Source of the DNA: an uncultured bacterium
Lineage (GTDB): Bacteria > Patescibacteriota > Minisyncoccia > Phycocordibacterales > PALSA-1337
Direction: 5' to 3'
DNA: 64,000 nucleotides
Assembly: GCA_903872035.1 (NCBI GenBank)
Contig: CAIQIZ010000021.1
Span: forward strand, 18,157 to 82,156
Below the pieces are notes generated by a model. The model was not told the DNA's origin and did not search any database. It saw nothing but the letters and a program-made list of their open reading frames with translations. Shown here in pieces: positions 3,360-57,810 of the stretch. Every line of letters starts with the position of its first letter. Positions within the stretch are counted from its first letter, which is position 1. A program made the translations under genes and the position numbers.

Positions 3360-5573
3360 CTATTTTTGCATTAGCTTGATCATTCCGTCCACACCTGTTT
3401 TTAGTTCCGGATGAACGCTCTCGAGTATCAATAACGTCTGAATAGCTTGTTGCACCATCCCTTGAGAATATTCCATCTGCGCCTGAGCAATCACGATATT
3501 CGCATCATCAGAAAAGAACGTCACGCCTTTGAATAGAACAAACAGCTTATTGGAATCATTGCTAGTAGCATAACTCTGGACATTTTTCAAAGTAGTGTTG
3601 AACAATGCGTCATTAGGGAGTATTGCATGAGCTTGAACATCATTACCCGCCAACTGAAGCGCGATAGCGTAGGCTTTTGCCACCTGAACATATTGTGGAG
3701 TAGCATCATATGCCTCTTTCAAGACCTTCACAGCTTGGTCATATTTCTTCATATATATGAGGTCGGCTGCAAACTCAAAATCGAACATCTGTCTAGCAGG
3801 TGATAATTCATGGGCTTTGGAAAGATAGGTTTCTGCGGCACCGATTTGACCAGTTTGATTTAGAGATAACCCGGCAAAATAATAGCTCCGCGCGTCTAGA
3901 GGTGTCGATCTGATTTGATTCGCCATCTCTCGACTGGCTAATTCGGTAAATTCCTGTTTGCGGTCTCTTGTAAAATCCGCATCCCAGTACGAACCGACAA
4001 AACATGAATACAATTGCTCTCGCGCCTCCTGTTCGATCATATACACGTTCGAATCAACAACCTTACGGAACGCTTCTATATTCACATCCTTGCTGCCGCA
4101 GGTGCCAACGGCGATAACTATTTCCCGAGCAACAACGATCTGTTTCGCCGAAAAGAAGTAGATCGTGACCGCCAACAATATCGTCAGTACCGGCAAAGCG
4201 ACATAATTTACAACCTCCCGCTTCATCGGGTTCGCACCGAACCATTTTATCTGGCGACCTTCTCTAAATGCGTTAACATACGCGAGCAACGCAAAGAATG
4301 GGACGTAACTGCCCAGATTGTCAAAAACAAAAAGATTGTTTATAGCATAAGCGACGAGAAGACCGGTTAGAATGCTTTTTTCGCCGATACTTGATAGCGA
4401 TTTCCAGATATAGATAATAAACAATATGTAAAGCATCAAGTATGATAAGAGACCGACAATGCCGGAATCGACCAAAGTATCGAGAAAGACGTTATGTGCG
4501 CGATCAAACCATTGTTCTTGGCCATCCATAGCCGGATTATAATGTTCTTGAAATACATAACTGAAATTTTCTTGTCCCCACCCCAGAATCGGCCTCTCCA
4601 TCGCGCCTTTCAGAGCCATCGGCCAAATGTATAGCCTCGACTGATTTGAGGCGTCACTGATCGAAATCGAGGCGAATCTATTCAAGATTGGACTATTTCG
4701 TATAAATGAAGCATTTCGGTTCAACCAGAAAATACATCCCGCGATCAATAGTAGGCCTATGATTCCCGCCGAGATCCAGCGCAATTTGTTCGACTCGCTC
4801 TTCCTGAATATCGCAAACAAGATCAGAGCTGATAAAAGGCCCCCTACGAGACCCAAGATCGCAGCCCGCGTCTGTGTTTCAAAAATGACAAAGCTGAATA
4901 GGACAACAAGAATGATATACGCCCACCGAAACGACTTATTCGACTCGATGTTCTTGTTGGACAGGATAGCTTTTGACTTGGCGACAATAAATAGATACAG
5001 AGAAATAAAGACATTGAAAATCATATAGACAGCCAGAAATTCGGCATTGCCGAATGACGCATCTAATCGGCCGAAATCTTTATGGAAACTTACCCAGCCT
5101 AATAATTGAAATAGGCCATAGATCGCCACGACACCGGCAACAAGCAAAGAAAAGTTCAACCATCTACGCCACAGAAGTTTTCCATCTTCACTGGCGCCGA
5201 ACACGCTAGTTATGACTATATAGAAAGCCCATAGATGAATAATCGTTATCCAACCGTCCATACGTTCAAGGTTCGACCATAAGCTACGCAAGACTTCGAC
5301 TCCAAGCAAGTCCGCGATAAGCGCGACGATCGCGAATATGCTCACGGCAATAGATAGTGACGACAACTTAGGCCTATATTTCGCATCCAATAAAGCCAGC
5401 GAGACCCAGCCGACAAAAGCTATTTCTACGATTACCCTAAAAAAGAAGGCTTTTCCGGTAATGAAAGGAAAAATGAAAGATTTCGTGACGATCAACGGAA
5501 ATATCGGCACGAGAAATAATGCCGCAATCGTGATATATCTAATTATCTTTTTTGATTCCATATAGCTTAACAT
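3360..5573 (-). CDS. O-antigen ligase (Wzy_C)-like polytopic membrane protein with C-terminal TPR repeats
   Basis: 737 aa. Many TM helices in the N-terminal 430 aa. The C-terminal soluble region has TPR-like repeats (YAIALQLAGN...). This architecture is common for O-antigen ligase family proteins. Confidence 0.6.
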   Translation of the reverse strand: MLSYMESKKIIRYITIAALFLVPIFPLIVTKSFIFPFITGKAFFFRVIVEIAFVGWVSLALLDAKYRPKLSSLSIAVSIFAIVALIADLLGVEVLRSLWSNLERMDGWITIIHLWAFYIVITSVFGASEDGKLLWRRWLNFSLLVAGVVAIYGLFQLLGWVSFHKDFGRLDASFGNAEFLAVYMIFNVFISLYLFIVAKSKAILSNKNIESNKSFRWAYIILVVLFSFVIFETQTRAAILGLVGGLLSALILFAIFRKSESNKLRWISAGIIGLLLIAGCIFWLNRNASFIRNSPILNRFASISISDASNQSRLYIWPMALKGAMERPILGWGQENFSYVFQEHYNPAMDGQEQWFDRAHNVFLDTLVDSGIVGLLSYLMLYILFIIYIWKSLSSIGEKSILTGLLVAYAINNLFVFDNLGSYVPFFALLAYVNAFREGRQIKWFGANPMKREVVNYVALPVLTILLAVTIYFFSAKQIVVAREIVIAVGTCGSKDVNIEAFRKVVDSNVYMIEQEAREQLYSCFVGSYWDADFTRDRKQEFTELASREMANQIRSTPLDARSYYFAGLSLNQTGQIGAAETYLSKAHELSPARQMFDFEFAADLIYMKKYDQAVKVLKEAYDATPQYVQVAKAYAIALQLAGNDVQAHAILPNDALFNTTLKNVQSYATSNDSNKLFVLFKGVTFFSDDANIVIAQAQMEYSQGMVQQAIQTLLILESVHPELKTGVDGMIKLMQK

Positions 5574-10183: not shown

Positions 10184-10559
10184 CTCTCCTATTATTAATA
10201 ATCGAAGGAGATTTTAATGCGGTTTGTAAACTAAACTGCTTACTAATTAATAATTGCCACTTCTTCCCGATCCGCGCTATCGACACGCGTCACGAAAAGG
10301 ATTTGTGGGCGAAACATGATGACTGAATCTGAAGATTGAAAATTGAAAAATTAAAAATAATTCAACTTCCAAAAGACAAATCCAATCGGACTTGCAAACA
10401 TACTTTTGTTGTAGTTTTCAAGGTCCATTCCCCATGCATGCCGCTTCGGCATATGCCTTGGGACGAGGGTACAATTTTCCGCACTACTTTGTTTAATAGG
10501 CGGGAATTACACACTCGTTACAAGCCATTATAGCCCACAACACTACGAATCTGCAAAAA

Positions 10560-10730
10560 GAGCCATGTGGATAAGTTTCCAAGCAATTTGGGTAAATATA
10601 GGTTAAATACGGCCGAAAGTCAAGGAAAGGTGCCAAAAACCACATAAGAGCGCCCTTTTGGCGCCGCAGGATTTTCCCTTCGTTGCGCTTCGCGCAAGTC
10701 GGGAAAACTGCTCCGCCAAGCGGGCGCTAT
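10560..10730. other. Structured intergenic element downstream of gene 10737..11543: branched hairpin set closed by AGCGCCC/GGGCGCT. Possible complex terminator or small RNA
   Basis: Nested inverted repeats: GCGCC-CTTTT-GGCGC; TTGCGC-TTCG-GCGCAA; outer AGCGCCC...GGGCGCT. On the minus strand a TTTTTGG run follows the outer stem. A second hairpin ATGCCG-CTT-CGGCAT lies at about 10440-10460. Confidence 0.3.
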
Positions 10731-10736
10731 AATCCG

Positions 10737-19071: not shown

Positions 19072-19399
19072 ATTGTTTTGCAGTCAGCTACCTGTCTATT
19101 TACAGGACCTCTATTCGCATTGAGACCATCTCCGGCAGGTGGGATGGGTCCCAAGTGGCAAAATCAAGGACTTACTGCGATTACGTACTGTTATTAATGT
19201 ATTCACGAGACTACCACACAAATGCCCTGCCCTGCAAGAGCTAGAGGCCCTAAGAGCTTACTAAATCAGTATGAAGAAAGGTTAAAAATTGTCTCAAGAA
19301 ACGATAAAAAATGTCTCAAGAAAGCGTGAAGAGGAACGCGAATGGCCATGTCCCACTTCAAACGGGCCCACCGTTCTGAAGCAGGACATAGCCATTCGC

Positions 19400-33804: not shown

Positions 33805-36800
33805 TTACTTCTTAATATCAAACTTCTCACCAAATTCAATAGCTGACAAGCGGGTAGCCGCTTTGATAGCTTGTTCGTTCTTACTGATCAAAGATTTCAT
33901 GTCTTCCGTCGCGACCAATACCGCCATATCGTTGACCGTCAATCCTTTCTCTTTGCGGAGGTCTTGGATCTTACGGAGCAATTCGCGGAGCTCGCCTTCT
34001 TCTTTAAGCTCAGGAGTAAGGACAGTATCCAATTCGACATCGGTTTCCATACCACCGTCGAATACAACTTCTTTTACATTAACTTCATCTGTTATGAGCC
34101 CAAGGAGTTCAGAATTTAAATCCTTAATTTTTGAATCCTTAATTTTTAACTTACCCAATGGTTGACGTACATTTATCTTTGCCGTCATCCTGGCTTCTAA
34201 ACCTTTGGAAGCGATAGACCGGACTAATTCCATGCTAGTCAATAATTTCTCATCGACTTTCCCTGCTTTCGGCCATTCTTCGAGGTGTACGCTTTCTTTT
34301 TCGCCTCCAACGCCTTGGTACAAGAAGTCAGCAAAGAAAGGCGTGAGCGGCGCCATGACTTTCGCCAATGATTGCAACACGAATTGTGTGGTAGCCAAAG
34401 CCGCTTGCTTGTCTTCAGCATTTTCTCCTTTGAATCGGTCGCGGGAACGTCGAAGATACCATTGGGAAAGATCTCCGACGAAATCTCGAATCGCTCGTGC
34501 AGGTTCGAAGAATTTGTAGTTGTCCAATCCGGTGGTCGTGGTTTCTATGAGCTGATTGAGTCTGGCGACGATCCACCGATCTAGAACATGAGATGTATTT
34601 GAAAGCTTGAAAATGTTTCCGGACCGAGCGCTGTGGGCCAGCGGCGAGGCGGAAGTATTTTCAAGCGATTCATCCACATATAGCTTATAGAACGACAGCA
34701 CATTCCCCGCCAAATTAAAGACCTTTTTATTTATCTCATCCACAGTCTTCTGATCAAAATTCTTGGAATCACCAGGCTGATTGACAGAATACATCCAGAA
34801 CCGCAGCGCATCAGCTCCATAGGCGTCCATCATCTCGAAAGGATTGACGACATTGCCGATAGATTTCGACATCTTCTTTCCTTGAGGATCGAGGATATGA
34901 CCGAGGCAGATGACATTCTTATAAGCCTTGCCTCTGCCCATGAGCACCCCGACTGCGTGCAATGTGTAGAACCATCCACGCGTCTGATCTATGGCTTCAG
35001 AAATAAAATCAGCTGGGTATGGGAATTTCTCCTTGCCGATCAAGCCGTGTTCTTTGCCACCAAGAACATGATCCTGGGCAAAAGGCATAGACCCGCTATC
35101 GAACCAGACATCCATGACTTCTTTGACTCGGCTCATTTCTCCACCACATTCGCAGGTCAATTTTACTTCGTCTATATAAGGACGGTGAAGGTCGAGCTCA
35201 AAATCAGGATTGTGAGGAAGGATCGAAAAGTCGAGTTTCCTAGCTTCCGCTTTTTGAACATACTTCAACTTATTCCAATCAGCCGCCTCGCTCTTTTCTA
35301 GTCCAGCGGCGGCACTGATAAGCATCATAGCCGGACATCCGTGAGTAACGATCAAAATCGTACGGCCTTGATATTTATTCTCCATTTCATAGAGGAAATC
35401 TCCGACCCTCTTTCTGACATCTCTCCAACTCTCAACCCCATCATCAGCCTTATTGAATCTGTCTTCGTTTATCGGAAACTTCTTATCGAATTTCGCCATA
35501 TCCTTGCCTTCCCAAGAGCCCATCCCCATTTCACGGACTCGCTCATCGACGATAACCTGCCCAGCTTTGAGACCGAGCGTATCAGCGACAAGATGGGCGG
35601 TCTCTTTGGTCCGCATGATCGGTGAAGTTATCACCAAATCTATCCCTGATTTTTTTAAGGCTTCGGCGGTTTTTGATACGTTTTCTTTACCCAACGCAGT
35701 CAAATGGCTCACCATCTCCAAACCGCTGTTCAAAGTCATTTTTACATTATTCTCCGCCTCGCCATGCCGCATAACATAGTAAGTATTGCGCGGCTTCTTG
35801 GAGACATCAGCCACTGATCCAGCAACTTTCCATTTCTTGCATTTGTCGCAAACCCAGACTGGTAAAGGCGTACCCCAATAGCGCTCGCGGGAAATGGCCC
35901 AATCCTTGACTTCGCGGAGCCATTCACCAAAACGACCTTCCTTTATATGCTCCGGCTCCCAATTGATGCCTTCATTTTCTTTGACCAGCTTGTGCCGCAA
36001 GTCCGACATTTTGATGTACCACGAATCACGGGCAAAATAGATGAGCGGTGTGTGACAGCGCCAACAGAAAGGATAGGTGTGCTCGTATTTTTCTTTACTG
36101 AATAGGATGCCACGGTGCGCCAAGTCTTTGATGATCTCCACGTCGGTCGCCTCATTCTTGACGAATTTGCCGGCCAAAAATCCAGCTTCATTTTTGAAAG
36201 TACCGTCTTCTTTTACCAGATGATATTTCGGCAGGCCTACCTTCGTGCCCAATTCAAAATCGTCCTGACCATACATTACAGCGGTGTGCACTATTCCAGT
36301 CCCATCTTCAGTAGTGACAAAATCAGCAGGATATACTTTGTAAGCATTCGACAGCTTCTCTTTTTCCGGACCGGAAATAGATTCTTTGAGAAATGGATAA
36401 AGGGGTTCGTATGAGAGACCGACCAATTCTTTGCCTTTGAAGGTCTCGATTATTTCCGGCTTCGTGTCTTTAAAAACTGCCTCCAGGCGATTTTTGGCAA
36501 GAATGTATGTCGTGGTCGCGTTTTTTGAATCTCCTTCCTCCTTACTGCTTCCTTCTTCCTCCATTTTTCTAACTTTCACATAATCGATCTTCTCCCCTAC
36601 CGCCAAGCCAACGTTGCCCGGCAATGTCCACGGCGTCGTCGTCCAAGCCAACAAATAGGTCTCGCTTGATCCTTCCTCCTTACTGCTCCCTCCTTCCTGC
36701 TTCAAGACCTTGAATTTCACTGTGACTGAAAGATCCTTGACCGTCTCATATCCTTGCGCCAATTCGTGCGACGACAAAACAGTTTGGTCATGAGGACACC

Positions 36801-37419
36801 AAGGGACGACTCGGAAATCTTTGTAGAGCAGATCCTTTTCGTGGACCGTCCGCATGATATTCCAAAGCGCTTCTATGTAAGCTGGCTTGTAGGTGATGTA
36901 GGCATTCTTCAAATCCACCCAGTAACCCATACGATTGGTAAGAAGTTCCCATTCACGCATGTAAGTCCAAACGCTCTCTTTACACTTCTCGTTGAAAGCA
37001 GCGATGCCGTATTCTTCGATCTCCTTTTTGAACTTGAAGCCGAGCTCCTTTTCGACTTGGATCTCTACTGGCAATCCATGAGTATCCCAACCGCCTTTAC
37101 GGCGGACATGGAATCCTTGCATTGTCTTGTACCTAGGAATGGCGTCTTTGAAAGCACGGGCTTCCAAATGATGGATGCCTGGACGACCGTTGGCGGTTGG
37201 TGGACCCTCATAAAAAACGAATTCACCTTTGGGCGCCTTTCCTTCTTGTGATTTATTCAGAGTCTTATCAAAAATCCCCTTCTCTTTCCAGAAGGCCATG
37301 ATCTTCTCCTCGCGCTCGGCGTGAGAGCTTTTGGGCATCGGCGGATTTTTCACGACGACCGGCGTTTTCTGCTCCGTAGGCATCTTTTGGCTTTTCTTGT
37401 GTTCAGAATCTGCTTGCAT
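33805..37419 (-). CDS. ileS: Isoleucyl-tRNA synthetase with an embedded histidine-phosphatase (PGAM-like) domain and two short EEGSSKEEG inserts
   Basis: P.ANG.PGIHH (HIGH-like), KMSKSIGN, WTTTPWTLPGN editing-domain motif, C-terminal zinc/anticodon region. Residues about 545-735 carry RHGE...SP.MRT.ETA...HG phosphatase motifs. Total length 1204 aa. Confidence 0.85.
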   Translation of the reverse strand: MQADSEHKKSQKMPTEQKTPVVVKNPPMPKSSHAEREEKIMAFWKEKGIFDKTLNKSQEGKAPKGEFVFYEGPPTANGRPGIHHLEARAFKDAIPRYKTMQGFHVRRKGGWDTHGLPVEIQVEKELGFKFKKEIEEYGIAAFNEKCKESVWTYMREWELLTNRMGYWVDLKNAYITYKPAYIEALWNIMRTVHEKDLLYKDFRVVPWCPHDQTVLSSHELAQGYETVKDLSVTVKFKVLKQEGGSSKEEGSSETYLLAWTTTPWTLPGNVGLAVGEKIDYVKVRKMEEEGSSKEEGDSKNATTTYILAKNRLEAVFKDTKPEIIETFKGKELVGLSYEPLYPFLKESISGPEKEKLSNAYKVYPADFVTTEDGTGIVHTAVMYGQDDFELGTKVGLPKYHLVKEDGTFKNEAGFLAGKFVKNEATDVEIIKDLAHRGILFSKEKYEHTYPFCWRCHTPLIYFARDSWYIKMSDLRHKLVKENEGINWEPEHIKEGRFGEWLREVKDWAISRERYWGTPLPVWVCDKCKKWKVAGSVADVSKKPRNTYYVMRHGEAENNVKMTLNSGLEMVSHLTALGKENVSKTAEALKKSGIDLVITSPIMRTKETAHLVADTLGLKAGQVIVDERVREMGMGSWEGKDMAKFDKKFPINEDRFNKADDGVESWRDVRKRVGDFLYEMENKYQGRTILIVTHGCPAMMLISAAAGLEKSEAADWNKLKYVQKAEARKLDFSILPHNPDFELDLHRPYIDEVKLTCECGGEMSRVKEVMDVWFDSGSMPFAQDHVLGGKEHGLIGKEKFPYPADFISEAIDQTRGWFYTLHAVGVLMGRGKAYKNVICLGHILDPQGKKMSKSIGNVVNPFEMMDAYGADALRFWMYSVNQPGDSKNFDQKTVDEINKKVFNLAGNVLSFYKLYVDESLENTSASPLAHSARSGNIFKLSNTSHVLDRWIVARLNQLIETTTTGLDNYKFFEPARAIRDFVGDLSQWYLRRSRDRFKGENAEDKQAALATTQFVLQSLAKVMAPLTPFFADFLYQGVGGEKESVHLEEWPKAGKVDEKLLTSMELVRSIASKGLEARMTAKINVRQPLGKLKIKDSKIKDLNSELLGLITDEVNVKEVVFDGGMETDVELDTVLTPELKEEGELRELLRKIQDLRKEKGLTVNDMAVLVATEDMKSLISKNEQAIKAATRLSAIEFGEKFDIKK
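35217..35787 (-). other. Histidine phosphatase (phosphoglycerate-mutase superfamily) domain inserted within IleRS
   Basis: YYVMRHGEAENN (RHG catalytic His), ITSPIMRTKETA, EMGMGSWEG, ILIVTHG (second His). Lies between the IleRS segments ...VWVCDKCKKWKVAGSV and DLHRPYIDEVKLTCECGG. Confidence 0.7.
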
Positions 37420-37522
37420 GACTTACAGCTTACGGCAAATCGCGCTCCTTTTCAATGTATATTTAGACCATACATCAGCATGTTACAATATTCGTATTAA
37501 TAGAATAACTATCAAAATTCCC

Positions 37523-37687
37523 ATGGCACTAGTAAAAGTTGAACAACACAGCTTCCTTGGAGGCATCTGGATGATCGGATGGCTCTTCACCATCGGCTTC
37601 CTGCAACTAGCTTTCTGGCAAGGAGTTCTGGCAATAGTGGTTTGGCCGTATTATCTCGGCGTGTTCGTGAATGGGTTGGTGAGATAA
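37523..37687 (+). CDS. Small hypothetical membrane protein (54 aa, 2 TM)
   Basis: MALVKVEQHSFLGGIWMIGWLFTIGFLQLAFWQGVLAIVVWPYYLGVFVNGLVR. Followed by a small hairpin and a CTTTTTC run. Confidence 0.35.
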   Translation: MALVKVEQHSFLGGIWMIGWLFTIGFLQLAFWQGVLAIVVWPYYLGVFVNGLVR

Positions 37688-37713
37688 ATCTGCAGAGGTG
37701 ACACCTCCGCAAA

Positions 37714-39618
37714 CTACATCTTTTTCGGAACTCTGATCCCCAACAGCCACAAACCTTCCGTCATAATGTTTTTGAAGCCTCTCGTCAACGCCAAGCGATA
37801 CGGCGACAGCGGATCTTTTTCGTCGATGATCGTCTGCGACGCATAGAAACTATTGAAGGCGCCGGCAAGGTTGATCAAGTAGTTAGCCACGACTTGCGGA
37901 GCATATTCGACTCGTGCACGCTCAACAACATCCGGGAAGCGGGCAAGAAGTTTTTCAAGAAGACCAACTTTATCAGGAAGAGCGGAATGATTTTCCAAGC
38001 CAGCTGAAATGCCTGCTTTCTCCAAAACTGCCGACGCTCTGACTACCGAGTATTGTAGATATGGTCCAGAATCACCTTCGAATGAGATAGACGCGGCTGA
38101 GTCGAATACGATATCACTTCCGATAGAAGAACGCAGGATGCTGTACTTTATAGCGCCGATGGCAATAATCGTCGCAACTTCTTCTGCTTCGACGGAATCA
38201 AATCCCCGAGTAGCGATCCTTTTCATCACCATTTCTTTGATATCTCCAATCAATGAATCCGCCGTAACCACATTCCCTGTTCGTGAAGACATCTTTCCCG
38301 CGGCGAAACGCATCATGCCGTGACCAATATGTTTTGTCTTGGCGCCATTCTTCTCGTCAATAAGCGACAAGACTTTCAACAAAACTTTGAAATATTCATT
38401 CTGTTCGCTGGCAGTGATGATGATCGACTGCACCGTATCGGGGTACTTCTCGAACTTGGTGACGTTTAGAGCGACATCTTTGGCTTCATATGTGGCAATG
38501 CCTTTTGAATTAACAAATACCCGTGTATGCAAACCAGCCTTTTCACCATTGAATACGATTGCTCCTTGGCTCTCCTCAAAAACACCCTTCTTCAAGAATT
38601 TTTGGACGATGGCCAGTCCGACCGGAGCCATGTCGCTCTCATATATGGTGTCATCAAAATCAGTTCCGAGTGTCACATACAATTCATTGAAATGATCCAG
38701 GCTCCATTTGCGACCCTTTTCATAGATCTTGTTGACCTCCGGATCAGACTTTTCGTACAAAACTTTATTGAGAGCGTCTATTTCCACCTGCGCCTTTGAT
38801 TGTTCAGTCTCAATGACTGGCTGATCCTTGCCAATTTCATTGGCATCCTTCTTACCATAGCTTCGCGTCCCTTCGACGTACATCTTCCCTAGAAATGCCG
38901 TTTTCTCTTGAATAGACGCTGAATCTTTTGGGAGTTCAGCCAAATGTTTCTGTATGGCCCAAATAGCCTTAGCGATATGCAATCCTTGATCCGATGGATA
39001 ACATATACGAATGACCTTGGCACCCGATGATTCGATAAGTCGCGAAAGAGATTCGCCGATAGAATTCGACATCAAATGCCCAATATGGAAAACCTTGAAA
39101 GCATTGGGGTCGGTGTATTCGACAAGGATCGGCCCGCTTTTTTCGTGCGACTTTAGTTGACTAAAGTGCTTCGCGGCGGAAGTTCTCCCACCTGCAACAG
39201 CCGAACCCATCACGGTCGAATCCGTCAAAGGTAAATCAGCCGCGACAAATTTCAATACCTCTTTGGCCATAACATCATCCTTAATTGTAAAGTTAATAAA
39301 TCCTGGACCGGCGATCGAGACATCTTTGATCGTGACCGGCATATTTTTCTTGAATCCTTCGACAACCGCATCCGCCAAGGCTTTTGGTGACTGGCCGAGT
39401 TTTTTTGCATAAACCAAAGCTGCATTTGTCGTAAAGTCGCCATGGTCCGGGTTTTCTGGGTAATCGATCTTTACCACTACCCCTCCACTAGCCAAATCAT
39501 CGGCCACTCCTAGGCAGTTCATTATGTCTTGCAGCCGCTTTACTATTTCGTTTTTCATCTCGATATTGTAGCAAAAATGTCGCCAATTTGCCTCTAAAGC
39601 TTTAGTTAGACTTGACAA
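37714..39618 (-). CDS. argS: Arginyl-tRNA synthetase
   Basis: N-terminal Arg_tRNA_synt_N-like domain, HIGH-like FHIGHLMS, class-I catalytic core, C-terminal DALR anticodon-binding domain. Confidence 0.85.
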   Translation of the reverse strand: MSSLTKALEANWRHFCYNIEMKNEIVKRLQDIMNCLGVADDLASGGVVVKIDYPENPDHGDFTTNAALVYAKKLGQSPKALADAVVEGFKKNMPVTIKDVSIAGPGFINFTIKDDVMAKEVLKFVAADLPLTDSTVMGSAVAGGRTSAAKHFSQLKSHEKSGPILVEYTDPNAFKVFHIGHLMSNSIGESLSRLIESSGAKVIRICYPSDQGLHIAKAIWAIQKHLAELPKDSASIQEKTAFLGKMYVEGTRSYGKKDANEIGKDQPVIETEQSKAQVEIDALNKVLYEKSDPEVNKIYEKGRKWSLDHFNELYVTLGTDFDDTIYESDMAPVGLAIVQKFLKKGVFEESQGAIVFNGEKAGLHTRVFVNSKGIATYEAKDVALNVTKFEKYPDTVQSIIITASEQNEYFKVLLKVLSLIDEKNGAKTKHIGHGMMRFAAGKMSSRTGNVVTADSLIGDIKEMVMKRIATRGFDSVEAEEVATIIAIGAIKYSILRSSIGSDIVFDSAASISFEGDSGPYLQYSVVRASAVLEKAGISAGLENHSALPDKVGLLEKLLARFPDVVERARVEYAPQVVANYLINLAGAFNSFYASQTIIDEKDPLSPYRLALTRGFKNIMTEGLWLLGIRVPKKM

Positions 39619-39979
39619 TTCCTAAATTAATCTTACAATACAACAAGAACGCACCTTCAACACGGGCTCAAGAAGACTTGCCCGGAAAACACCGTTCCCA
39701 TCGTACGGGAATGCTTGTAAATTGGGAAGGTTCCTTAAACGGCTTCGGTTCCTCATCTGATATCTTCGCGTTGCGCTGTGCACTCCAGCCACTTAGCCTG
39801 AAAGTCTTCCGAGCAGTAAAGCCCGTCAAAAAACCTAGGCGCGAGGTTTATCCGATCCCTCGCGCCTTCCCCTTTCGATTGCTAGACGTTTTCTTTCATT
39901 TTCGTCGGCAATCAGCGCAGGGTTCTCCTCCTCCGAGAGCCCTGCGCATTTTCGTATATGCATATCTGATACTTAGAAA

Positions 39980-41242
39980 CTATTTTCTCAAGATCTCGTC
40001 CATCTTCTTTGCGATAAGTTTGAAATCTTTTTCTTTGCGTCCACGAGTCGTTTCCGCAGCCGTGCCAAGCCGGATTCCTGAAGGATCAGCCGGGGGTCGC
40101 TTGTCGAATGGAATGGCATTCTTGTTGACGATGATCCCTTGTTTTTCCAAACGCTCGCTAGCCTCTTTACCAGTAATTGCACCGGCGCCCGCTTCAGCTT
40201 TACCGGCGGCATCCTTAACAAGAGGTTCCCTCTTTTTGCCGTCATTCCACGTGTCCACCAATATCAAATGCGAATCGGTTCCGCCGGAAATGAGACGCCA
40301 GCCGCGCTTCTCCAATTCTTCTGCCAAAACTTTGGCATTCTTCACAACTTGGTTGGCATATTTTCTAAAAGCTGGAGTAGATGCTTCTTTCAATGCCACA
40401 GCGACAGCGGCGATCTGATTGGCATGTGGGCCGCCCTGCAAGCCTGGAAATACTGCCTTGTCTATCTTTTTATATAATTCACGCGCATCCTTCTTTACGA
40501 ATATCAAAGCAGCTCGAGGGCCTCGCAAAGTCTTGTGCGTGGTAGTAGTGACAACATCAGCATAATCAAATGGCGAAGGATAGACGCCCCCAGCTACCAA
40601 TCCGGCGATGTGAGACATGTCCACCATCATTAAACCTTCGGAAGCATCAGACACTTCCCGCATCTTCTTCCAATCGATGATCCGTGGATACGCTGTATAA
40701 CCAGAAACGACAATAGTCGGCTTCTCCTTCATAGCTATCTCACGGAGTTGGTCGTAATTGATAGTCTCTGTAACCGGGTCAAGCCCATAAGGTATCTGCT
40801 GCCAAAATTTACCAGTAGCTGAAACTTTCTGACCGTGAGTGAGGTGACCTCCCTGGTCCAGAGACATACCCATGATCTTTCCAGCAACGCTCGTCGTCCC
40901 GTCTTCTTGTTTGACTCCGCCACGCGGAACCAGAGCAGTGAAAACAGCTAAGTTGGCTGGCGAACCGGAAAGCGGCTGGACGTTCACGTGCCATTCGTTT
41001 GGATCAAGTCTGAATAATTTCAAAGCACGGTCGATGCAAAGCTCCTCGATCTTGTCGATGATATCGTTGCCACCATAGTAACGCTTGCCGGCATAGCCTT
41101 CGGCGTATTTGTTGGTCAGTTCCGAACCGAGAGCCTCCAGTACGTCCCGAGAAACATAATTTTCCGAAGCGATGAGATTGATAGCTTTCTTCTGACGCTT
41201 CTTCTCAGCCTCTATGAGTTTTTTGATTTGTGTGTCTTTCAT
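39980..41242 (-). CDS. glyA: Serine hydroxymethyltransferase
   Basis: IASENYVSRDVLEALGSELTNKYAEGY...TTTTHKTLRGPR (PLP-Lys). Start taken at MKDTQIKKLIEAEKKRQ (41242); the track ORF extends to 41356. About 20-aa low-complexity insert AGKAEAGAGA near the C-terminus. Confidence 0.9.
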   Translation of the reverse strand: MKDTQIKKLIEAEKKRQKKAINLIASENYVSRDVLEALGSELTNKYAEGYAGKRYYGGNDIIDKIEELCIDRALKLFRLDPNEWHVNVQPLSGSPANLAVFTALVPRGGVKQEDGTTSVAGKIMGMSLDQGGHLTHGQKVSATGKFWQQIPYGLDPVTETINYDQLREIAMKEKPTIVVSGYTAYPRIIDWKKMREVSDASEGLMMVDMSHIAGLVAGGVYPSPFDYADVVTTTTHKTLRGPRAALIFVKKDARELYKKIDKAVFPGLQGGPHANQIAAVAVALKEASTPAFRKYANQVVKNAKVLAEELEKRGWRLISGGTDSHLILVDTWNDGKKREPLVKDAAGKAEAGAGAITGKEASERLEKQGIIVNKNAIPFDKRPPADPSGIRLGTAAETTRGRKEKDFKLIAKKMDEILRK

Positions 41243-41265
41243 ATAAACAATCGTATCATATCCAT

Positions 41266-41305
41266 AAGTAAATGTCGGCAGACAAAAAGGGGTCACGGAA
41301 ATGCA
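41266..41305 (-). terminator. Intrinsic terminator hairpin (GGGGTCACGG-loop-CCGTGACCCC + TTTTTG) located about 25 nt upstream of the glyA start codon, at the end of a roughly 345-nt leader
   Basis: Perfect 10-bp stem; on the minus strand it is followed by a T5 run. Positioned like a riboswitch/attenuator expression platform. Confidence 0.6.
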
Positions 41306-41651
41306 AACCGTGACCCCCCAACCGAGATACGGGGTGAAAAAACCCGACCTCAACATTTAGAAACAACAAACAACGAAAGAAATTGACCGGCGGCAACACA
41401 ATCAAACAATCTTCATTAAATCGATTATCCGAATGAATACCTATCAATCATGTTGCCAGCCGGAGTGGAGTTAGTTATCCACCATGAAGCCCGGTGAGGG
41501 CTTATTTCGTATTCCAGCCAACGCCAGAATCCGCTGATTGCAACAATACTCCTGTGGTCAAAAAAAGCAATCCCCAGGTTGTCCACAGGATGTTATACGA
41601 GATGAAGCTAGGCGGCGAGCCTCGCAGGATCTCGCGAAGTGAGACCTCGTA

Positions 41652-42074
41652 TCACTTACCAGTGCTTCCAAACCTCCCTTCTCCACGACTGGTCGTTCCG
41701 AGCCCATCGGCTTCTTCCAATTCAGCGATAGCTACCGGAAATATCACAAGCTGAGCGATCTTATCTCCTTTATGGATTTGATAAGGCTCGCTGCCGAGAT
41801 TGATCAGGTTCACATTGTACTCTCCTCTATACCCCGCATCATAGACGCCTCCCATAGTGTGGATGCCGGCATTCTTCGGTAAGCTGCCTTTATCCTTAAC
41901 GATAGCCGCATATCCTTCATGAAATTCCAGAGCAAATCCAAGAAAAAATATCCTTCTTTCGCTAGGCTTCAATAAATAGTCTTCCAGTGAATAGAGGTCA
42001 AGTCCGACGTCGCCAGGATGGGCGTATGAGGGTGTAGTCGCTGCTTGATTTAGTTTCTTTATTTTTATCCGCAT
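41652..42074 (-). CDS. dut: dUTP diphosphatase
   Basis: AGIDLYS-like GDVGLDLYS, GGVYDAGYRGE, RGEGGFGSTG-like C-terminal motif V (SRGEGRFGSTGK). Confidence 0.9.
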   Translation of the reverse strand: MRIKIKKLNQAATTPSYAHPGDVGLDLYSLEDYLLKPSERRIFFLGFALEFHEGYAAIVKDKGSLPKNAGIHTMGGVYDAGYRGEYNVNLINLGSEPYQIHKGDKIAQLVIFPVAIAELEEADGLGTTSRGEGRFGSTGK

Positions 42075-42122: not shown

Positions 42123-43034
42123 ATGAAAACATACGCCGAACGAACGCCCGACTCGCAATACCAGGGCTTGCTCCGAGAGATTTTGGAAACGGGTGTACGT
42201 ACTCCTAGCCAACAGGGCGTGGATGCGCTGACAGTCATCGGCCCGCGTTCCCTCCATTTCAAACTTGATAATGGTTTTCCCTTGATCACTGAACGAAATC
42301 TCAATCCGAAGACTTCAGATACGCTTCCGGTCACGATCTGGCAACAAGCCATCGGAGAAATACTCGGCTTTATGAATGGCGCACGGACACAGAAAGAGCT
42401 GGAGAAATTCGGTTGCTACTGGTGGCGCTGGTGGGTCACCAAGGAAAAATGCGAGAAACGCGGATTGGAAGAAGGCGATCTCGGACCCGGTTCATACGGC
42501 GCGGCTTTCCATGACTTCCCTACAAACGAAGGTGCACCTTACAATCAATTCAAGAACGTCATCGAGCAGATCAAAGAATTTCCGCATCTACGCACGCATT
42601 TCGTCACACCTTGGATACCGCAGTACATGATGCGAGGAAAAGGCAAGCAACAGAAGGTCGTAGTTTGTCCGTGCCACGGTTGGATCCATATCAGGATAAT
42701 CGATAACAAGCTGACTCTCCATATGATCCAGCGCTCCTGCGACGTTCCAGTCGGATTGCCACAAAATCTGATCCAGTACGCCGCTTTGGCCTTGGCGATC
42801 GCACACGTCACAGGAACGGAGGCTTATGAATATGTGCACAGCTTTTCCGATGCGCATATATATGTCGATCAAGTAGACTCAGTCAATACCATGCTTGCCC
42901 GCGAACCGCGACGCTTGCCGACACTGACATTGAATACATCCAAGAAAGATCTGTTCGATTTCCGACGCGAAGATTTCACCCTGACAGATTACGACCCGCA
43001 TCCAGGTATCAAAAAAATCCCAGTCGCCATATAA
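42123..43034 (+). CDS. thyA: Thymidylate synthase (ThyA family)
   Basis: N-terminal ThyA fold; catalytic CPCHG (Pro-Cys-His); QRSCDVPVGLPQNLIQYAAL matches QRS.D..LG.PFNIASY. Confidence 0.8.
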   Translation: MKTYAERTPDSQYQGLLREILETGVRTPSQQGVDALTVIGPRSLHFKLDNGFPLITERNLNPKTSDTLPVTIWQQAIGEILGFMNGARTQKELEKFGCYWWRWWVTKEKCEKRGLEEGDLGPGSYGAAFHDFPTNEGAPYNQFKNVIEQIKEFPHLRTHFVTPWIPQYMMRGKGKQQKVVVCPCHGWIHIRIIDNKLTLHMIQRSCDVPVGLPQNLIQYAALALAIAHVTGTEAYEYVHSFSDAHIYVDQVDSVNTMLAREPRRLPTLTLNTSKKDLFDFRREDFTLTDYDPHPGIKKIPVAI

Positions 43035-43043
43035 GCCAAGGAA

Positions 43044-43520
43044 ATGACCAGATTCATCAACACTGCGACTATTCGCCGAGAAGACCAGAGAAAAGTAATG
43101 GAGGAGATCGAGAAGAACGACCATTGCCCTTTTTGTCCAGAGAATCTTTCTAAATATCACAAGAAGCCGATATTGAAAGAAGGAAAATTCTGGCTGCTCA
43201 CAGAAAATCAGTGGCCCTACGAGAACACCAAGCATCAGCTACTGGCTATCTACAAGACTCATATCGAGCACATCAAAGATATCGACCCCCAAGCAGCGGC
43301 GGAACTCTTTCAAATGTTCAAGGATGAATCTATCAAGAGAGGTGTCGTTGGTGGTGGGATCGCAATGCGTTTCGGCAGCAGCCCTGATGGCAATTATGGT
43401 AGCTCTGTCCTACACCTTCACGCTCACCTGTTCGAGCCTGATCTTAAAGCCTTGAAATCGGACGAGGCTTGGCGCTTCAAATTCGGCCAACCGAAGGACT
43501 ATAAGAAAAAGAATGTGTAG
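43044..43520 (+). CDS. HIT-family nucleotide hydrolase/transferase-like protein (with CxxC)
   Basis: Histidine triad HLHAHL; N-terminal HCPFCPE. Confidence 0.6.
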   Translation: MTRFINTATIRREDQRKVMEEIEKNDHCPFCPENLSKYHKKPILKEGKFWLLTENQWPYENTKHQLLAIYKTHIEHIKDIDPQAAAELFQMFKDESIKRGVVGGGIAMRFGSSPDGNYGSSVLHLHAHLFEPDLKALKSDEAWRFKFGQPKDYKKKNV

Positions 43521-43592: not shown

Positions 43593-44180
43593 GTGAATGA
43601 AAAACCTTCCTTAGTGATCCCGGGTATTTCCGACCCGGCAAAATTGGCCTGCATCGCCAGAGCCCGCAAATTCAAACAGTACAGAAAATATGTCGAGGAC
43701 GCGTTGGCGGGCAGATGCACAATTTGCAGCCTCGACCAGAGCAATACCAGATTCGTCGAAGTTCCACGTGTCAACGCGATGAGAGTCTGGTACTGCAATC
43801 CGCCAGAGAAATTCACTAGGCTCCACTTCCTAATGAGCCCAGTGCGGCATATCACCGACACTCGTCAACTCTCTGTCGAGGAACGACGCGCGTTCTGGGA
43901 GGTAATGGAGTACTTGCCGAATAAGTTCAGCTTCAACTTTCGCGGCATCCTGATCCGCGATGGTGACGCGACCCAATCAGCCGGGACCATCGAACACCTC
44001 CACATCCACATCATGGTGCCAGACGGGACTGGTCGTGTTGAATCACCATTCTGTAAGACTCCAGAAGAGGAAGCCGCCGGCGTCGCTCGGGCAATAATTT
44101 TCGAGAAGCTCCGAACCGGGACAATGGTCGCGGAGCTTCCTGGCAACGAGTACGAGCTCGTCAAAGATCGTTTGGAGTAA
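43593..44180 (+). CDS. HIT-family protein (second paralog)
   Basis: Histidine triad HLHIHIM; CTIC motif. Confidence 0.55.
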   Translation: MNEKPSLVIPGISDPAKLACIARARKFKQYRKYVEDALAGRCTICSLDQSNTRFVEVPRVNAMRVWYCNPPEKFTRLHFLMSPVRHITDTRQLSVEERRAFWEVMEYLPNKFSFNFRGILIRDGDATQSAGTIEHLHIHIMVPDGTGRVESPFCKTPEEEAAGVARAIIFEKLRTGTMVAELPGNEYELVKDRLE

Positions 44181-44216: not shown

Positions 44217-45089
44217 CTACGATGTAGCCGCCTTTTTCATTCTCACATGAACGATCTTGACTCCCCTATTTTTCAATATCCTCTCGCCATCTAAGACACC
44301 ATAGCCATCCGAGTAATATACTTTCTTGATACCTGAATAAGCAACAAGCTTGGCACAAGCCGGACAAGGGAAAGTAGTGACATATAGCGATGTGCCTTCG
44401 AGGGATGTTCCCTTTTGAGCAGCTTCAGCGATTAGCCTGGCCTCGCAGTGAAACGAAGTGGAAAGCTCAATATTCACGCCTTTTGAGAAGTCCGAGCGAG
44501 GATCACCCTCTTCATACGGCAAATGTTCGGACGGAACTGCGTGGTTGTGAAGCATACTTAGAATTTTTCCATCTTTGACTATGGCCGCCCCAATTTGGCG
44601 CCAGATATCAGAGCTTTTCTCTGCCTCTTTTTTTAATGATGAGATCATCTCCCGATCCGTTCCGGACGTAGAGATAGTTTGATCGGCTTCAATAGGCCGA
44701 TTCTCAAACGACTTGTGTTTGTCCCAACGAAGAAAGATCGTGTCGAATATGACCTTGGTATCCTTGAAATATCTCTCCTTGATATCGCGCATGACTTCCT
44801 CGTCAGGCATGACAATCGTTGTTTTTGCAGCAGCCAATGACCGAAAATCTTTCTGACCGATGATACGTATAGATCTGAATCGTTTCCAAGACTTCAGAGC
44901 CAATAGCATAAGCTTCAAATCCAAAGCCCGGATATCCTTAGTAAGGGCCTTGTAATCTTTTATGATTTCCGGACCGATAAGAAAAAGCTCCTTGGCTTCT
45001 CTATGCTTATCGAAAAATCGCGCATACCCTTCATGCAACACCGGCACGTATGCGACGATGACCTGTCTTTTGTCGCCGTTTTTTTTCAT
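44217..45089 (-). CDS. dCMP (deoxycytidylate) deaminase fused to an uncharacterised N-terminal domain of about 150 aa
   Basis: C-terminal zinc-binding motifs HCEARLIAEAA and PCPACAKLV of the cytidine/dCMP deaminase family. The N-terminal half has no recognised family. Confidence 0.7.
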   Translation of the reverse strand: MKKNGDKRQVIVAYVPVLHEGYARFFDKHREAKELFLIGPEIIKDYKALTKDIRALDLKLMLLALKSWKRFRSIRIIGQKDFRSLAAAKTTIVMPDEEVMRDIKERYFKDTKVIFDTIFLRWDKHKSFENRPIEADQTISTSGTDREMISSLKKEAEKSSDIWRQIGAAIVKDGKILSMLHNHAVPSEHLPYEEGDPRSDFSKGVNIELSTSFHCEARLIAEAAQKGTSLEGTSLYVTTFPCPACAKLVAYSGIKKVYYSDGYGVLDGERILKNRGVKIVHVRMKKAATS

Positions 45090-45783: not shown

Positions 45784-46305
45784 ATGAACTGTTTCATCAT
45801 CGCCGCCCTATCTGCCGACGGATATATCGCCAAGAATCCAACGGCACCATCGACCGTCTGGACGAGCAAAGAAGACAAAAAGCGCTTTGTTGAGCTGACC
45901 AAAAAGGCTGGCGTAGTCGTCATGGGTCAAAATACTTGGAACACACTTGGCGGCAAGGCTTTGAAAGATCGCTTGAATATCGTCTATTCCCCCACCCCAT
46001 TGCCAGCGACCGAGCGCTTGGAAGTCACCGAAAAAAGCCCAGCAGACCTATTGAAAGACCTAGAGTCGCGCGGTCACAAAGAAGTTGCCATATGTGGCGG
46101 CTCGCAAATATACACAATGTTCATGAAGTCAGGGCTTGTGACCAAGCTATTTCTGACCATCGAACCGGTCATTTTCGGCAGCGGCATCAGGCTATTCAAA
46201 GAAGATATGGACTTCAAATTGAAGCTCGTGGAATCTATCAAGACTGAGAATGGGACGCTTCTACAAGAGTATGATGTCCTTGCGACAATCTCAGACAACC
46301 AATAA
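45784..46305 (+). CDS. Dihydrofolate reductase-like protein (RibD C-terminal/DHFR family)
   Basis: IIAALSADGYIA...W.SKEDKKRF.ELTKKAGVVVMGQNTW..LGGKAL.DRLNIVYS pattern. Start taken at MNCFII (45784); the track ORF starts at 45760. Confidence 0.6.
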   Translation: MNCFIIAALSADGYIAKNPTAPSTVWTSKEDKKRFVELTKKAGVVVMGQNTWNTLGGKALKDRLNIVYSPTPLPATERLEVTEKSPADLLKDLESRGHKEVAICGGSQIYTMFMKSGLVTKLFLTIEPVIFGSGIRLFKEDMDFKLKLVESIKTENGTLLQEYDVLATISDNQ

Positions 46306-48275: not shown

Positions 48276-48305
48276 GGGGACAAATTTAAAATTAAAGATT
48301 GAAAT

Positions 48306-48485
48306 TTAGAACAATAGTGTCAGAAGCTTAGAAAAAACGAAATCTGACAGACCAAGCAAAGCGGCGGTGGCCAGAGAAACCAAGATCACCAAAGACGTGA
48401 ACCTGATAGTTTGATCGCGTGTAGGCCAATTGACATGGCTCATCTCACCACGTGTTTCCTTAACATAATTGCTGAATCTATTCAT
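48306..48485 (-). CDS. secE: Preprotein translocase subunit SecE
   Basis: MNRFSNYVKETRGEMSHVNWPTRDQTIRFTSLVILVSLATAALLGL is a classic SecE. The track ORF extends to 48554. Confidence 0.8.
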   Translation of the reverse strand: MNRFSNYVKETRGEMSHVNWPTRDQTIRFTSLVILVSLATAALLGLSDFVFSKLLTLLF

Positions 48486-48590
48486 GGTATTGGTCCTTTT
48501 AGACGCTTTTTGATTAAAAAATCCCGCAGGGGGATAACATGTGTATAGTAGCATGCTGATAACAGTAAATCAAGGCCTGCTTGAAGTCTC

Positions 48591-48649
48591 CAGAAATCTT
48601 TCCGTTTGCCGCTGGCCCACAGCGCTCAAACGAAAAGATTTCTTTCGCC
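48591..48649. repeat. Palindromic repeat element, copy B (intergenic): arms GAAATCTTTCCGTTTG / CAAACGAAAAGATTTC around core CCGCTGGCCCACAGCGCT
   Basis: Near-identical to copy A, with a compensatory arm change (C:G in A, T:A in B). Confidence 0.7.
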
Positions 48650-48664
48650 TTCCAAGCCCGACTG

Positions 48665-49583: not shown

Positions 49584-50453
49584 TCAAACTCTTCCCGTGC
49601 ACAGATCCACTAGATTCTCGAACAATGAATAGACGGTCATCGGCCCAACTCCCCCAGGCACCGGTGTTATGGCGGAGACCTTCTTTGCAACTTTCTTGAA
49701 ATCAACATCTCCGACCAAACGAGCACCTTCTATCTCATCATCCAATTTTTCACCAGTCACCTTATTTATTCCAACATCGACGATCACTTGGCCCTTTTTC
49801 ACATGCTTGGCGGTGATGAGCCCGGGTTTGCCGACTGCTACGATCACTATATCTGCTGATTTGGTCTCCTTGGCCAAGTCCTTGGTCTTGCTGTGACAGA
49901 CCGTGACTGTCGCTTCTTCATTCAAACACATTGTGATAACCGGTTTTCCCACCAACATGGACCGGCCGATGACCGTAACTTTCTTTCCAAATAATTCGAT
50001 CTTGTAGGCCTCCAACAGAGTACGTATCCCCCGTGCCGTCGCAGGCAAGATGGCATCTTCTCGACCTTCGTACCAACGCTTTACACTGAAAGCTGTCAAT
50101 GCATCGACATCTTTCTTTGGATCGATGGCGTTGATGATAGCGTCTCGATCAAGATGAATCGGCAATGGCAACTGCACAATGATGCCGTGAATACCCCCAT
50201 CAGCATTACATTCCTTGATGATATCGAGCAATTCGCCCTGCGAAATCGATTCAGTTGTTTGGATATGCTTCTCCTTTACACCGATCCTTTGAGCAAATCT
50301 CTTTTTAGCTCCTATAAAAGCAGTTGAATCCGGTCTATCGCCGACTTGAATGATAGCCAGCGTCGGCACATACGAAAGCGCCTTGACCCTCTCTACTAGT
50401 CCGGGGATGAGGGAATCACGAGTGGCCTTGCCGTCGAGAATTATAGTCTTCAT
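49584..50453 (-). CDS. folD: Bifunctional methylenetetrahydrofolate dehydrogenase/cyclohydrolase
   Basis: ILDGK...AIIQVGDRPDS..Y...K, GIIVQLPLP, GKKVTVIGRSMLVGKPV, PGGVGPMTV. Confidence 0.9.
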   Translation of the reverse strand: MKTIILDGKATRDSLIPGLVERVKALSYVPTLAIIQVGDRPDSTAFIGAKKRFAQRIGVKEKHIQTTESISQGELLDIIKECNADGGIHGIIVQLPLPIHLDRDAIINAIDPKKDVDALTAFSVKRWYEGREDAILPATARGIRTLLEAYKIELFGKKVTVIGRSMLVGKPVITMCLNEEATVTVCHSKTKDLAKETKSADIVIVAVGKPGLITAKHVKKGQVIVDVGINKVTGEKLDDEIEGARLVGDVDFKKVAKKVSAITPVPGGVGPMTVYSLFENLVDLCTGRV

Positions 50454-57429: not shown

Positions 57430-57644
57430 TCAGATCTTCTCACAATCACAATGCAGAATCCCGTCGGCCGAAGTATAGGTCTCGCAGACCAAGCTTGGCT
57501 GCGCCGGTTTTATTTGTTTGTCTTGTTCTGTTCTCATCAGTCTGGTGACGAGCATCACCTAGGATCATTACAACTTATGGATTGTAATGGCCATCTAAGT
57601 TAAACGGCAATGTTGTATAGCATTATTAAAATAACATAAATCCC

Positions 57645-57794
57645 ATGTTAACATTCATCGCTGTCGTCCTTATAGCTCTCTGGCTCCTTGGAGTGGTAAC
57701 CTCATATACGATCGGAGGTTTTATTCACGTGCTTCTAATTGTGGCAATAATAATGATCCTCGTCCGATTGATCAGAGGACAGCGGGTGCTCTAG
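57645..57794 (+). CDS. Small membrane protein (49 aa), lmo0937-family-like
   Basis: MLTFIAVVLIALWLLGVVTSYTIGGFIHVLLIVAIIMILVRLIRGQRVL. The GG.IH.LL..A motif and length resemble the lmo0937 small-membrane-protein family. Not in the ORF track because it is under 60 aa. Confidence 0.45.
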   Translation: MLTFIAVVLIALWLLGVVTSYTIGGFIHVLLIVAIIMILVRLIRGQRVL

Positions 57795-57810
57795 AAGCGC
57801 TCCCTATTTG

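Follow-up and report, generated by a model that had tools for sequence, protein, structure and literature searches.

The genes glyA and folD are classic targets of the ZTP (pfl) and tetrahydrofolate (THF) riboswitches, and in Firmicutes and Actinobacteria such leaders place a structured RNA before a one-carbon gene, with a terminator near the start codon. A second precedent is the 6S RNA gene (ssrS), which in Escherichia coli and its relatives lies directly upstream of the folate gene ygfA; it is a separately promoted non-coding RNA gene that is co-oriented with the gene of folate metabolism that follows. A third is the regulation of the nrdAB and dnaA promoters of E. coli by DnaA boxes. Here we analyse a stretch of 64,000 nucleotides (nt) from an uncultured patescibacterium (contig CAIQIZ010000021.1 of assembly GCA_903872035.1, positions 18,157–82,156; hereafter, the window) that touches on all three, namely the gap between dut, which encodes dUTPase (41652–42074; PF00692), and glyA, which encodes serine hydroxymethyltransferase (SHMT; 39980–41242). 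Both genes and the features of the gap described below lie on the minus strand. A preliminary description of the window had read the gap as a leader of glyA of about 345 nt, ending in a terminator that serves as the expression platform of a candidate riboswitch or attenuator. A long non-coding region does adjoin glyA, although it measures 409 nt (41243–41651). It is, in our judgement, probably a separate non-coding transcription unit that is closed by a constitutive terminator and placed ahead of a leaderless glyA gene. The RNA unit appears to be new and clade-specific, and a leaderless glyA promoter appears to accompany it.

In the mechanism that we propose, a distal promoter (about 41571–41543) with a DnaA-box-like operator (41587–41579) would start a structured RNA of about 250 nt, which carries a 5′ hairpin, a long hairpin based on GCCGG, an AUUUC motif and a G+U-rich tract. 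This RNA would end unconditionally at a strong intrinsic terminator (41317–41284). RNA polymerase would then initiate anew 25 nt further on, at the extended −10 element TGATACGAT (41258–41250), and the transcript would begin on or beside the A of the glyA ATG, yielding a leaderless glyA mRNA. The hairpin would terminate the small RNA as well as any transcription that runs on from dut and would insulate the glyA promoter, rather than act as a platform controlled by a ligand. All promoters and all transcript starts and ends in this analysis are predictions from sequence. For comparison we used about 150 distinct loci from related Paceibacteria, all centred on glyA; promoter, terminator, position of the −10 element, RNA structure and overall architecture are conserved among them to the extents given below.

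The hairpin in front of glyA is of the genuine intrinsic-terminator type. Its arms, GGGGTCACGG (41317–41308) and CCGTGACCCC (41298–41289), form a perfect 10-base-pair (bp) stem with 10 of 10 positions paired, 7 of them G-C, around a 9-nt loop, and a run of five T residues (41288–41284; TTTTTG on the minus strand) abuts the stem, as in intrinsic (Rho-independent) terminators. Folded alone, the hairpin reaches about −19.7 kcal/mol. We located it by inverted-repeat search and folding; a simple terminator scan did not list it because the loop limit of that scan was 8 nt. The preliminary description had recognized the perfect GC-rich hairpin and the TTTTTG correctly, but its coordinates (41305–41266) were 12–17 nt off, and the distance from the TTTTTG to the ATG at 41242 is 40 nt, not about 25 nt. 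Of 150 distinct related loci, 49 have a GC-rich hairpin with a T-run at a comparable site, no more than about 200 nt ahead of the glyA start codon, and on this comparison the hairpin exceeds chance. Its position is kept and its stem is partly kept: many stems of the relatives carry GGNCCGTCGC-type sequence, often in the arrangement GGNCCGUCGC...GCGACGGNCC. In the 31 relatives in which a strong terminator accompanies the distal promoter, the hairpins average −22 kcal/mol, with GC-rich stems of 10–14 bp.

Between this terminator and the start codon, a motif scan and comparison with relatives identified a predicted glyA promoter (41250–41278). It consists of a −35-like CCGACA (41273–41278), a spacer of 17 nt and the extended −10 element TGATACGAT (41250–41258), which ends 7 nt before the ATG. 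The corresponding pattern TGNTANNNT (TGnTAnnnT) occurs 96 times in the last 112 nt before glyA in the relatives, and 34 of these occurrences lie exactly 6–7 nt from the ATG; counted by locus, an extended −10 is located 4–10 nt before the ATG in 42 of 150. A second small cluster lies near 30 nt, indicating that the motif behaves as a promoter and not as a fixed translation signal. We found no Shine–Dalgarno sequence at any gene start in the window. A −10 element that ends 7 nt before the ATG, together with the lack of a Shine–Dalgarno sequence, matches the sequence pattern of leaderless transcription in Actinobacteria and Deinococcus, and the glyA mRNA is probably leaderless and made from its own predicted promoter. 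These observations do not support the assignment of the hairpin region to a glyA leader, and they point to a glyA promoter inside the gap, a possibility that the preliminary description had itself named as damaging to its reading.

The start codon on which this layout depends is marked by the SHMT N terminus MKD(T/I/L)Q, which is conserved in all relatives, with divergent sequence just upstream; the window protein (420 amino acids, MKDTQ...; PF00464, E = 6e-154) thus begins at ATG 41242. The database product of glyA (P0001; 458 amino acids from ATG 41356) runs through the terminator and is over-extended by 38 codons. The error is systematic in these genomes, which lack Shine–Dalgarno sequences: in three relatives (L161, L172 and L173) the called starts also lie further upstream, and the real MKD start is preceded by a terminator and by TGCTACAAT or TGTTACGAT. 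The TGnTAnnnT-before-ATG layout is shared by 7 or more further genes of the window, among them argS (true start 39558), metS and folD. Many gene starts, with those at 21838, 23034, 24877, 29529, 39558 and 50453 (minus strand) and at 11743 (plus strand) as examples, have the motif 6–9 nt before the ATG, and it is present even where the upstream gene ends only 22–27 nt away, which suggests that leaderless mRNAs and gene-internal promoters are widespread in this genome. At glyA, the distance from the T-run to the TG of the extended −10 element is 25 nt in the window and 12–15 nt in several relatives; with spacing this short, termination would take place inside the expected footprint of the polymerase at the glyA promoter.

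At the other end of the gap, positional homology identifies a predicted distal promoter (41543–41571) with the −35 element TTGCTT/ATTGCT (41565–41571), a spacer of 16–17 nt that ends in AGGAG (41549–41553) and the −10 element TATTGT (41543–41548). Just upstream of the −35 element is a DnaA-box-like 9-mer, TGTGGACAA (41579–41587; complement TTGTCCACA, matching TTATCCACA at 8 of 9 positions). In the relatives, the block reads as 1–3 TGTGGA(T/C)AA-like boxes, about 4 nt, TTGACA, 17 nt ending in (A)GGAG, and TAnnnT. It is present in 40 distinct glyA loci of the roughly 150 (66–100% SHMT identity) and is always co-oriented with glyA. The gene upstream of it varies, being dut in the window and L161, NT5C in L001, L172 and L173, and thyA in L164 and L171, which indicates that the unit travels with glyA and not with dut. 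The only block of the gap that BLAST aligns with the 91% relative (L001) is 46 nt long and lies near the start of the gap. The distal-promoter sequence AGGAGTANNNT occurs a single time in the window, as does the gap sequence as a whole, and we rejected a repeat or mobile element on the latter ground.

The boxes are tied to the promoter. A DnaA box with at most one mismatch occurs within the 45 nt upstream of the −35 element in 27 of the 40 promoter-bearing relatives, compared with 2.7% of background windows, and the exact box (TGTGGATAA) in 14 of 40. Boxes are single or in 2–3 tandem copies about 11 nt apart, with preferred offsets from the −35 element of −13 and −24/−25. In the window, positions 41579–41590 and 41550–41561 also form a 12-nt inverted repeat (TCCTGTGGTCAA/TTGTCCACAGGA; 92% complementary) that brackets the distal −35 region and has the look of an operator; it is specific to this genome and absent from L001. 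As at nrdAB and dnaA in E. coli, a 9-mer of DnaA-box consensus thus adjoins a −35 element in a locus of deoxynucleotide supply. Unlike those promoters, the one predicted here would drive a non-coding RNA and not an enzyme gene, its secondary boxes keep GGATAA alone, and the DnaA site is identified as a sequence match.

Promoters of this kind were also seen on the far side of glyA. In L006 (about 3660–3720), L019 (about 5170–5230), L011 and L138, a TTGACA-N17-(GGAG)TAGnAT promoter overlaps the glyA stop and points into the glyA–argS gap; ahead of this promoter, L006 and L019 carry TATCCACA/TTATCCACA within the glyA coding sequence, so that in some relatives promoters with DnaA-like boxes flank glyA on both sides. 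In the window, the glyA–argS gap (39559–39979, minus strand) is also non-coding and is 421 nt long; a 13-bp hairpin (39947–39915) directly follows the glyA stop, and a terminator-like hairpin with T6 lies at about 39866–39828. The start of argS follows as TGCTACAAT, 6 nt and the ATG at 39558, not the TTG at 39618 that begins the longest open reading frame.

The RNA between the distal promoter and the terminator is predicted to be about 250 nt long (41284–41536); we infer its start near 41536 and its end at the T-run. It folds to a minimum free energy (MFE) of −98 kcal/mol (z = −5.6) as a multi-branched structure of five separate hairpins in both the MFE and the centroid prediction. The signal is not confined to the terminator, because in 21 relatives the RNA bodies stripped of it have a mean z of −2.4, compared with +0.38 for length-matched glyA coding controls (P = 3 × 10−6). 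The expectation of a structured, conserved RNA upstream of the terminator is therefore borne out. The 5′ hairpin, P1 (41511–41530), pairs AUUCUGGC with GCUGGAAU. In relatives it begins 8–14 nt past the −10 element and covaries, with stems as different as GGAAC/GUUCC, AGAGC/GCUCU, ACGGAU/AUCCGU and GGCA/UGCC. Hairpins P2 (41487–41503, AAGCCC/GGGCUU) and P3 (41464–41483) follow within 41464–41503 in the MFE and centroid structures and are weakly comparable in L001. P4 is a long hairpin of 77 nt (41387–41463) with CCGGC/GCCGG at its base and then GGCAACA/UGUUGCC; it is kept in L001 and L166, where seven pairs are changed on both sides. The P4 base and its flanks, AAAGCCGGC...GCCGCCGGC(Y)CCAUUUCC (AAAGCCGGC...GCCGCCGGCYCCAUUUCC), recur in at least 12 distinct relatives, and the window shares the architecture of the whole RNA with L001 and L166. 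A linker (41318–41386) then leads to the terminator. It contains the pyrimidine motif AUUUC (41379–41383), which is conserved in relatives, and a G+U-rich, C-poor tract; the G+U fraction in the 60 nt before the terminator is 0.73 in the window and 0.62–0.75 in many relatives. Pairing of the conserved 5′ motif with the region after AUUUC is seen in some relatives but is inconsistent, and we do not claim a closing stem. Across the relatives the RNA varies from 67 to 550 nt and has little conserved core.

The G+U tract at 41375–41362 (GUUGUUUGUUGUUU) is a perfect 14-nt complement to codons 3–7 of nusG (48269–48256, minus strand; AAACAACAAACAAC), a low-complexity match with a BLAST E value of 0.08 within the 64-kb window. 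Ranking of RNA–mRNA duplexes against the gene starts of the window was uninformative because the G+U-rich tract pairs promiscuously.

The gap is non-coding by our criteria: no reading frame is conserved in the RNA, and tblastx detects similarity in the promoter block alone, over several frames and on both strands, so we rejected a small protein or protein remnant. We also compared the region with all 4227 families of Rfam 15 using cmscan. The whole window and 16 related loci gave no hits at gathering thresholds; at relaxed thresholds, 41150–41750 gave noise of the snoRNA and miRNA type only (E ≤ 10), seven related loci nothing relevant (E ≤ 5), and the gap of L038, the longest relative, nothing relevant (E ≤ 10). 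ZTP, THF, glycine, T-box, 6S, RNase P, tmRNA and SRP RNAs were rejected for want of a covariance-model match. For RNase P RNA, the P4 helix of which AAAGCCGGC...GCCGGCUU resembles superficially, the longest relatives gave no hit even at E ≤ 5 and E ≤ 10.

The described systems differ from the RNA of the gap. ZTP and THF leaders resemble it in placing a structured RNA and a terminator before a one-carbon gene, but neither RF01750, RF01831 nor any other family matches the gap RNA, which has no conserved core of aptamer size, no detectable antiterminator, and a separate predicted promoter between its terminator and the glyA ATG. The arrangement of ssrS and ygfA is similar in that a separately promoted non-coding RNA precedes a co-oriented folate gene; the gap RNA, however, does not match RF00013, is multi-branched and not a rod with a central bubble, varies greatly in length and is missing from some close relatives such as L174. 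T-box leaders, too, are multi-hairpin RNAs of 200–300 nt that end in a terminator, and the gap lies next to glyA, argS and ileS, but it has neither an RF00230 match nor an antiterminator, and visual inspection of the window gap and of the relatives read showed no T-box 14-mer. Bacterial trans-acting small RNAs bounded by terminators have their own promoter, a 5′ hairpin, a single-stranded seed and a Rho-independent terminator; the gap RNA shares with them a predicted promoter of its own, a strong terminator, the lack of coding potential, and a conserved single-stranded pyrimidine motif with a G+U-rich tract immediately ahead of the terminator. The strict linkage to glyA would be unusual among these RNAs, although the loci searched were centred on glyA, and the gap RNA has no known target, nor these genomes a known chaperone.

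Because the operator matches a DnaA box, the neighbouring genes form the thymidylate cycle and the unit is clade-specific and dispensable, the most likely role of the RNA would be that of a small regulatory RNA whose DnaA-box-like sites link its synthesis to replication and to the supply of thymidylate. The absence of the unit from L174, and the restriction of the distal-promoter motif to about 40 of the 150 loci, do not fit a housekeeping RNA. The RNA could act in trans through its single-stranded AUUUC and G+U-rich region, or it could act locally, since its termination point would fall inside the footprint of the glyA promoter. A broader proposal, which we put forward only tentatively and regard as doubtful, is that these units form a new family of non-coding RNA cassettes that flank glyA in ultra-small bacteria of the candidate phyla radiation (CPR), with an upstream copy in about 40 loci and one in the glyA–argS gap of some relatives. 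Controlled through DnaA-box-like sites, such cassettes would couple replication status to the supply of thymidylate (dTMP) and one-carbon units by AUUUC/G+U base pairing or by RNA polymerase traffic.

Several observations weigh against reading the gap as an independent unit with a DnaA-linked promoter. In all of about 40 loci the unit directly precedes glyA in the same orientation, as a cis-regulatory leader would. The distal promoter of the window is weak (about 7/12 consensus overall, 3/6 in the −35 element) and was not listed by a sigma-70 scan; being too weak for a consensus scan, it owes its assignment to positional homology. Covariation comes from few independent lineages because rapid divergence precludes a wide alignment, and four contigs of the same species, identical in the gap, add none. 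In the comparative alignment of glyA upstream regions advocated in the preliminary description, neither BLAST nor nhmmer extends beyond the 91% relative, and clustering of all sequences against all others leaves tiny groups; comparison of motifs nevertheless reveals the conserved architecture. Finally, the secondary boxes read GGGGATAA or GTTGATAA, in which GGATAA alone is constant and the TGTG half varies, and the protein at the box may accordingly be one other than DnaA.

The main alternative, though we think it unlikely, is a cis-acting attenuator. The distal promoter would be the regulated promoter of glyA, the RNA its long 5′ leader, and termination would be suppressed by a factor outside the known riboswitch ligand classes, such as a protein, a tRNA, an ion or a fold of the RNA G-quadruplex type in the G-rich tract. 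Besides the fixed position and orientation of the unit behind any upstream gene, this explanation accounts for the distance of 30–100 nt between terminator and ATG in most of the roughly 40 loci (110–200 nt in several) and for the structure seen in the folding z-scores. A read-through mRNA would still be translatable, as the genome does not use Shine–Dalgarno sequences, and a similar layout of promoter, RNA and terminator precedes argS in some relatives. The pairing that an attenuator needs is, however, weak. Across the 31 loci in which both elements are present, the most stable duplex that the 5′ arm of the terminator can form with the 90 nt upstream averages −9.6 kcal/mol, where both elements means the distal promoter and a strong terminator, compared with −22 kcal/mol for the hairpin, and complementarity to that arm is below that of shuffled upstream sequence (mean z = +0.75); in the window the values are −10.5 kcal/mol (z = −0.47) and −19.7 kcal/mol. 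The upstream sequence thus avoids complementarity to the arm, which speaks against the expression-platform layout proposed for the hairpin. The terminators are also very strong, the RNA body ranges from 67 to 550 nt with scant conserved core, no Rfam family matches it, and nearly all loci have a near-consensus extended −10 element between the terminator and the start codon. Weak antiterminator pairing, a variable RNA body and a separate glyA promoter argue, at the level of sequence, against a riboswitch or classical attenuator and favour unconditional termination.

It is also improbable that the gap is an ordinary spacer in which the hairpin serves as the dut terminator and the remainder is non-functional or a decayed gene. 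In favour of such a spacer, most of the gap sequence diverges fast between relatives, and dut itself lacks a terminator with a T-run, so its transcripts probably end at the glyA-proximal hairpin. A small hairpin just past the dut stop (41620–41639; CTTCGC...GCGAGG) lacks a T-run and is possibly a 3′ stabilizer of the upstream mRNA or part of the region upstream of the promoter; L001 has CCTCACG...CGTGAGG at the corresponding site behind a different gene. The terminator hairpin is nevertheless more than a dut terminator. The promoter block, the 5′ hairpin, the GCCGG hairpin with AUUUC and the terminator stem are kept whether the gene upstream is dut, NT5C or thyA, the RNAs fold with much lower z-scores than coding controls do, and tblastx finds no remnant of a protein.

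We give slightly less weight still to a DnaA-binding locus that acts at the level of DNA, either a replication origin or a titration or reactivation site comparable to datA or DARS, with no RNA gene involved. The frequency of exact and near-exact boxes, singly or in tandem, and further GGATAA-type sites inside the window gap (41475–41483) would fit such a locus. Cumulative GC skew, however, falls monotonically with no turn at 41–42 kb, on which ground we rejected an origin at the gap, and gene orientation does not flip. The boxes number only 1–3 and are always locked to a −35/−10 pair at fixed spacing; box matches in the window as a whole are marginally above chance (23 compared with 14.3 expected; 3 of 100 shuffles reach 23); and dnaA was not found among the approximately 30 largest open reading frames checked by Pfam.

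The original suspicion was that the gap holds one of the known one-carbon riboswitches (ZTP/pfl, THF-I/II or glycine), with the terminator as its expression platform. This reading can be dismissed with near certainty despite its fitting gene context of glyA and folD and the terminator near the glyA start codon, since ZTP (RF01750), THF (RF01831) and glycine (RF00504) models match neither the gap nor the 16 related loci, the weak pfl resemblance noted earlier (GGTCTCACTTCGCG...CGCCGCCTAGC, about 41646–41606) lies upstream of the predicted promoter of the RNA and has no covariance-model support, and folD in the window has an upstream gap of only 24 nt with its own leaderless-type promoter.

The wider context supports assignment of the window to Patescibacteria. 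The best matches of its SHMT are metagenome-assembled genomes of Taylorbacteria-like Paceibacteria (62–91% identity), and protein matches identify the window as a genome fragment of this group. Three JGI samples (3300025316, 3300009175 and 3300009502) contain this contig as well. A giant virus or phage origin, first suggested by the aminoacyl-tRNA synthetases and nucleotide genes, was rejected because the protein hits are patescibacterial; a search of viral contigs with SHMT gave no match. Around the gap, Pfam confirmed all of the one-carbon and thymidylate genes listed in the preliminary description: in addition to glyA and dut, these are thyA (42123–43034, plus strand), dCMP deaminase (44217–45089, minus strand), DHFR (about 45784–46305, plus strand) and folD (49584–50453, minus strand). 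ThyA, DHFR, SHMT, dUTPase and dCMP deaminase together form the thymidylate cycle. Two neighbouring open reading frames between thyA and the dCMP deaminase gene (43044–43520 and 43593–44180, plus strand) have weak HIT/DcpS-like matches, and the dCMP deaminase (290 amino acids) has a long N-terminal extension ahead of its deaminase domain. The isoleucyl-tRNA synthetase (33805–37419, minus strand; 1204 amino acids) carries a histidine-phosphatase domain (PF00300; amino acids 548–715) inserted within its catalytic domain, and its counterpart in L161, an 82% relative, has the same insertion architecture at 1303 amino acids. A scan of the window for tRNA and tmRNA genes found none. Other intergenic gaps of 290–550 nt interrupt this otherwise compact genome at 10184–10736, 19072–19399, 37420–37713, 48276–48664 and 57430–57803; the first of these contains an exact TGTGGATAA at 10566–10574 (plus strand).

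To our knowledge, no regulatory RNAs have been described for Patescibacteria. A search of the full-text literature, only narrowly directed at riboswitches or structured RNAs of Patescibacteria, found no described equivalent of the unit. Patescibacterial genomes are around 1 Mb in size and tightly packed, and the retention of a non-coding unit of 250–550 nt across a clade of such compact genomes implies a function. The genomes studied here combine starts that are free of Shine–Dalgarno sequences and often leaderless with strong terminators only a few bases upstream. This layout misleads gene callers, as in the 38 surplus codons of glyA, and it misleads readers who take a terminator before an ATG for a riboswitch. 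CPR organisms are unable to make nucleotides de novo, and a DnaA-box-like operator beside the genes of the thymidylate cycle offers a testable hypothesis that would link the control of replication to the supply of dTMP.

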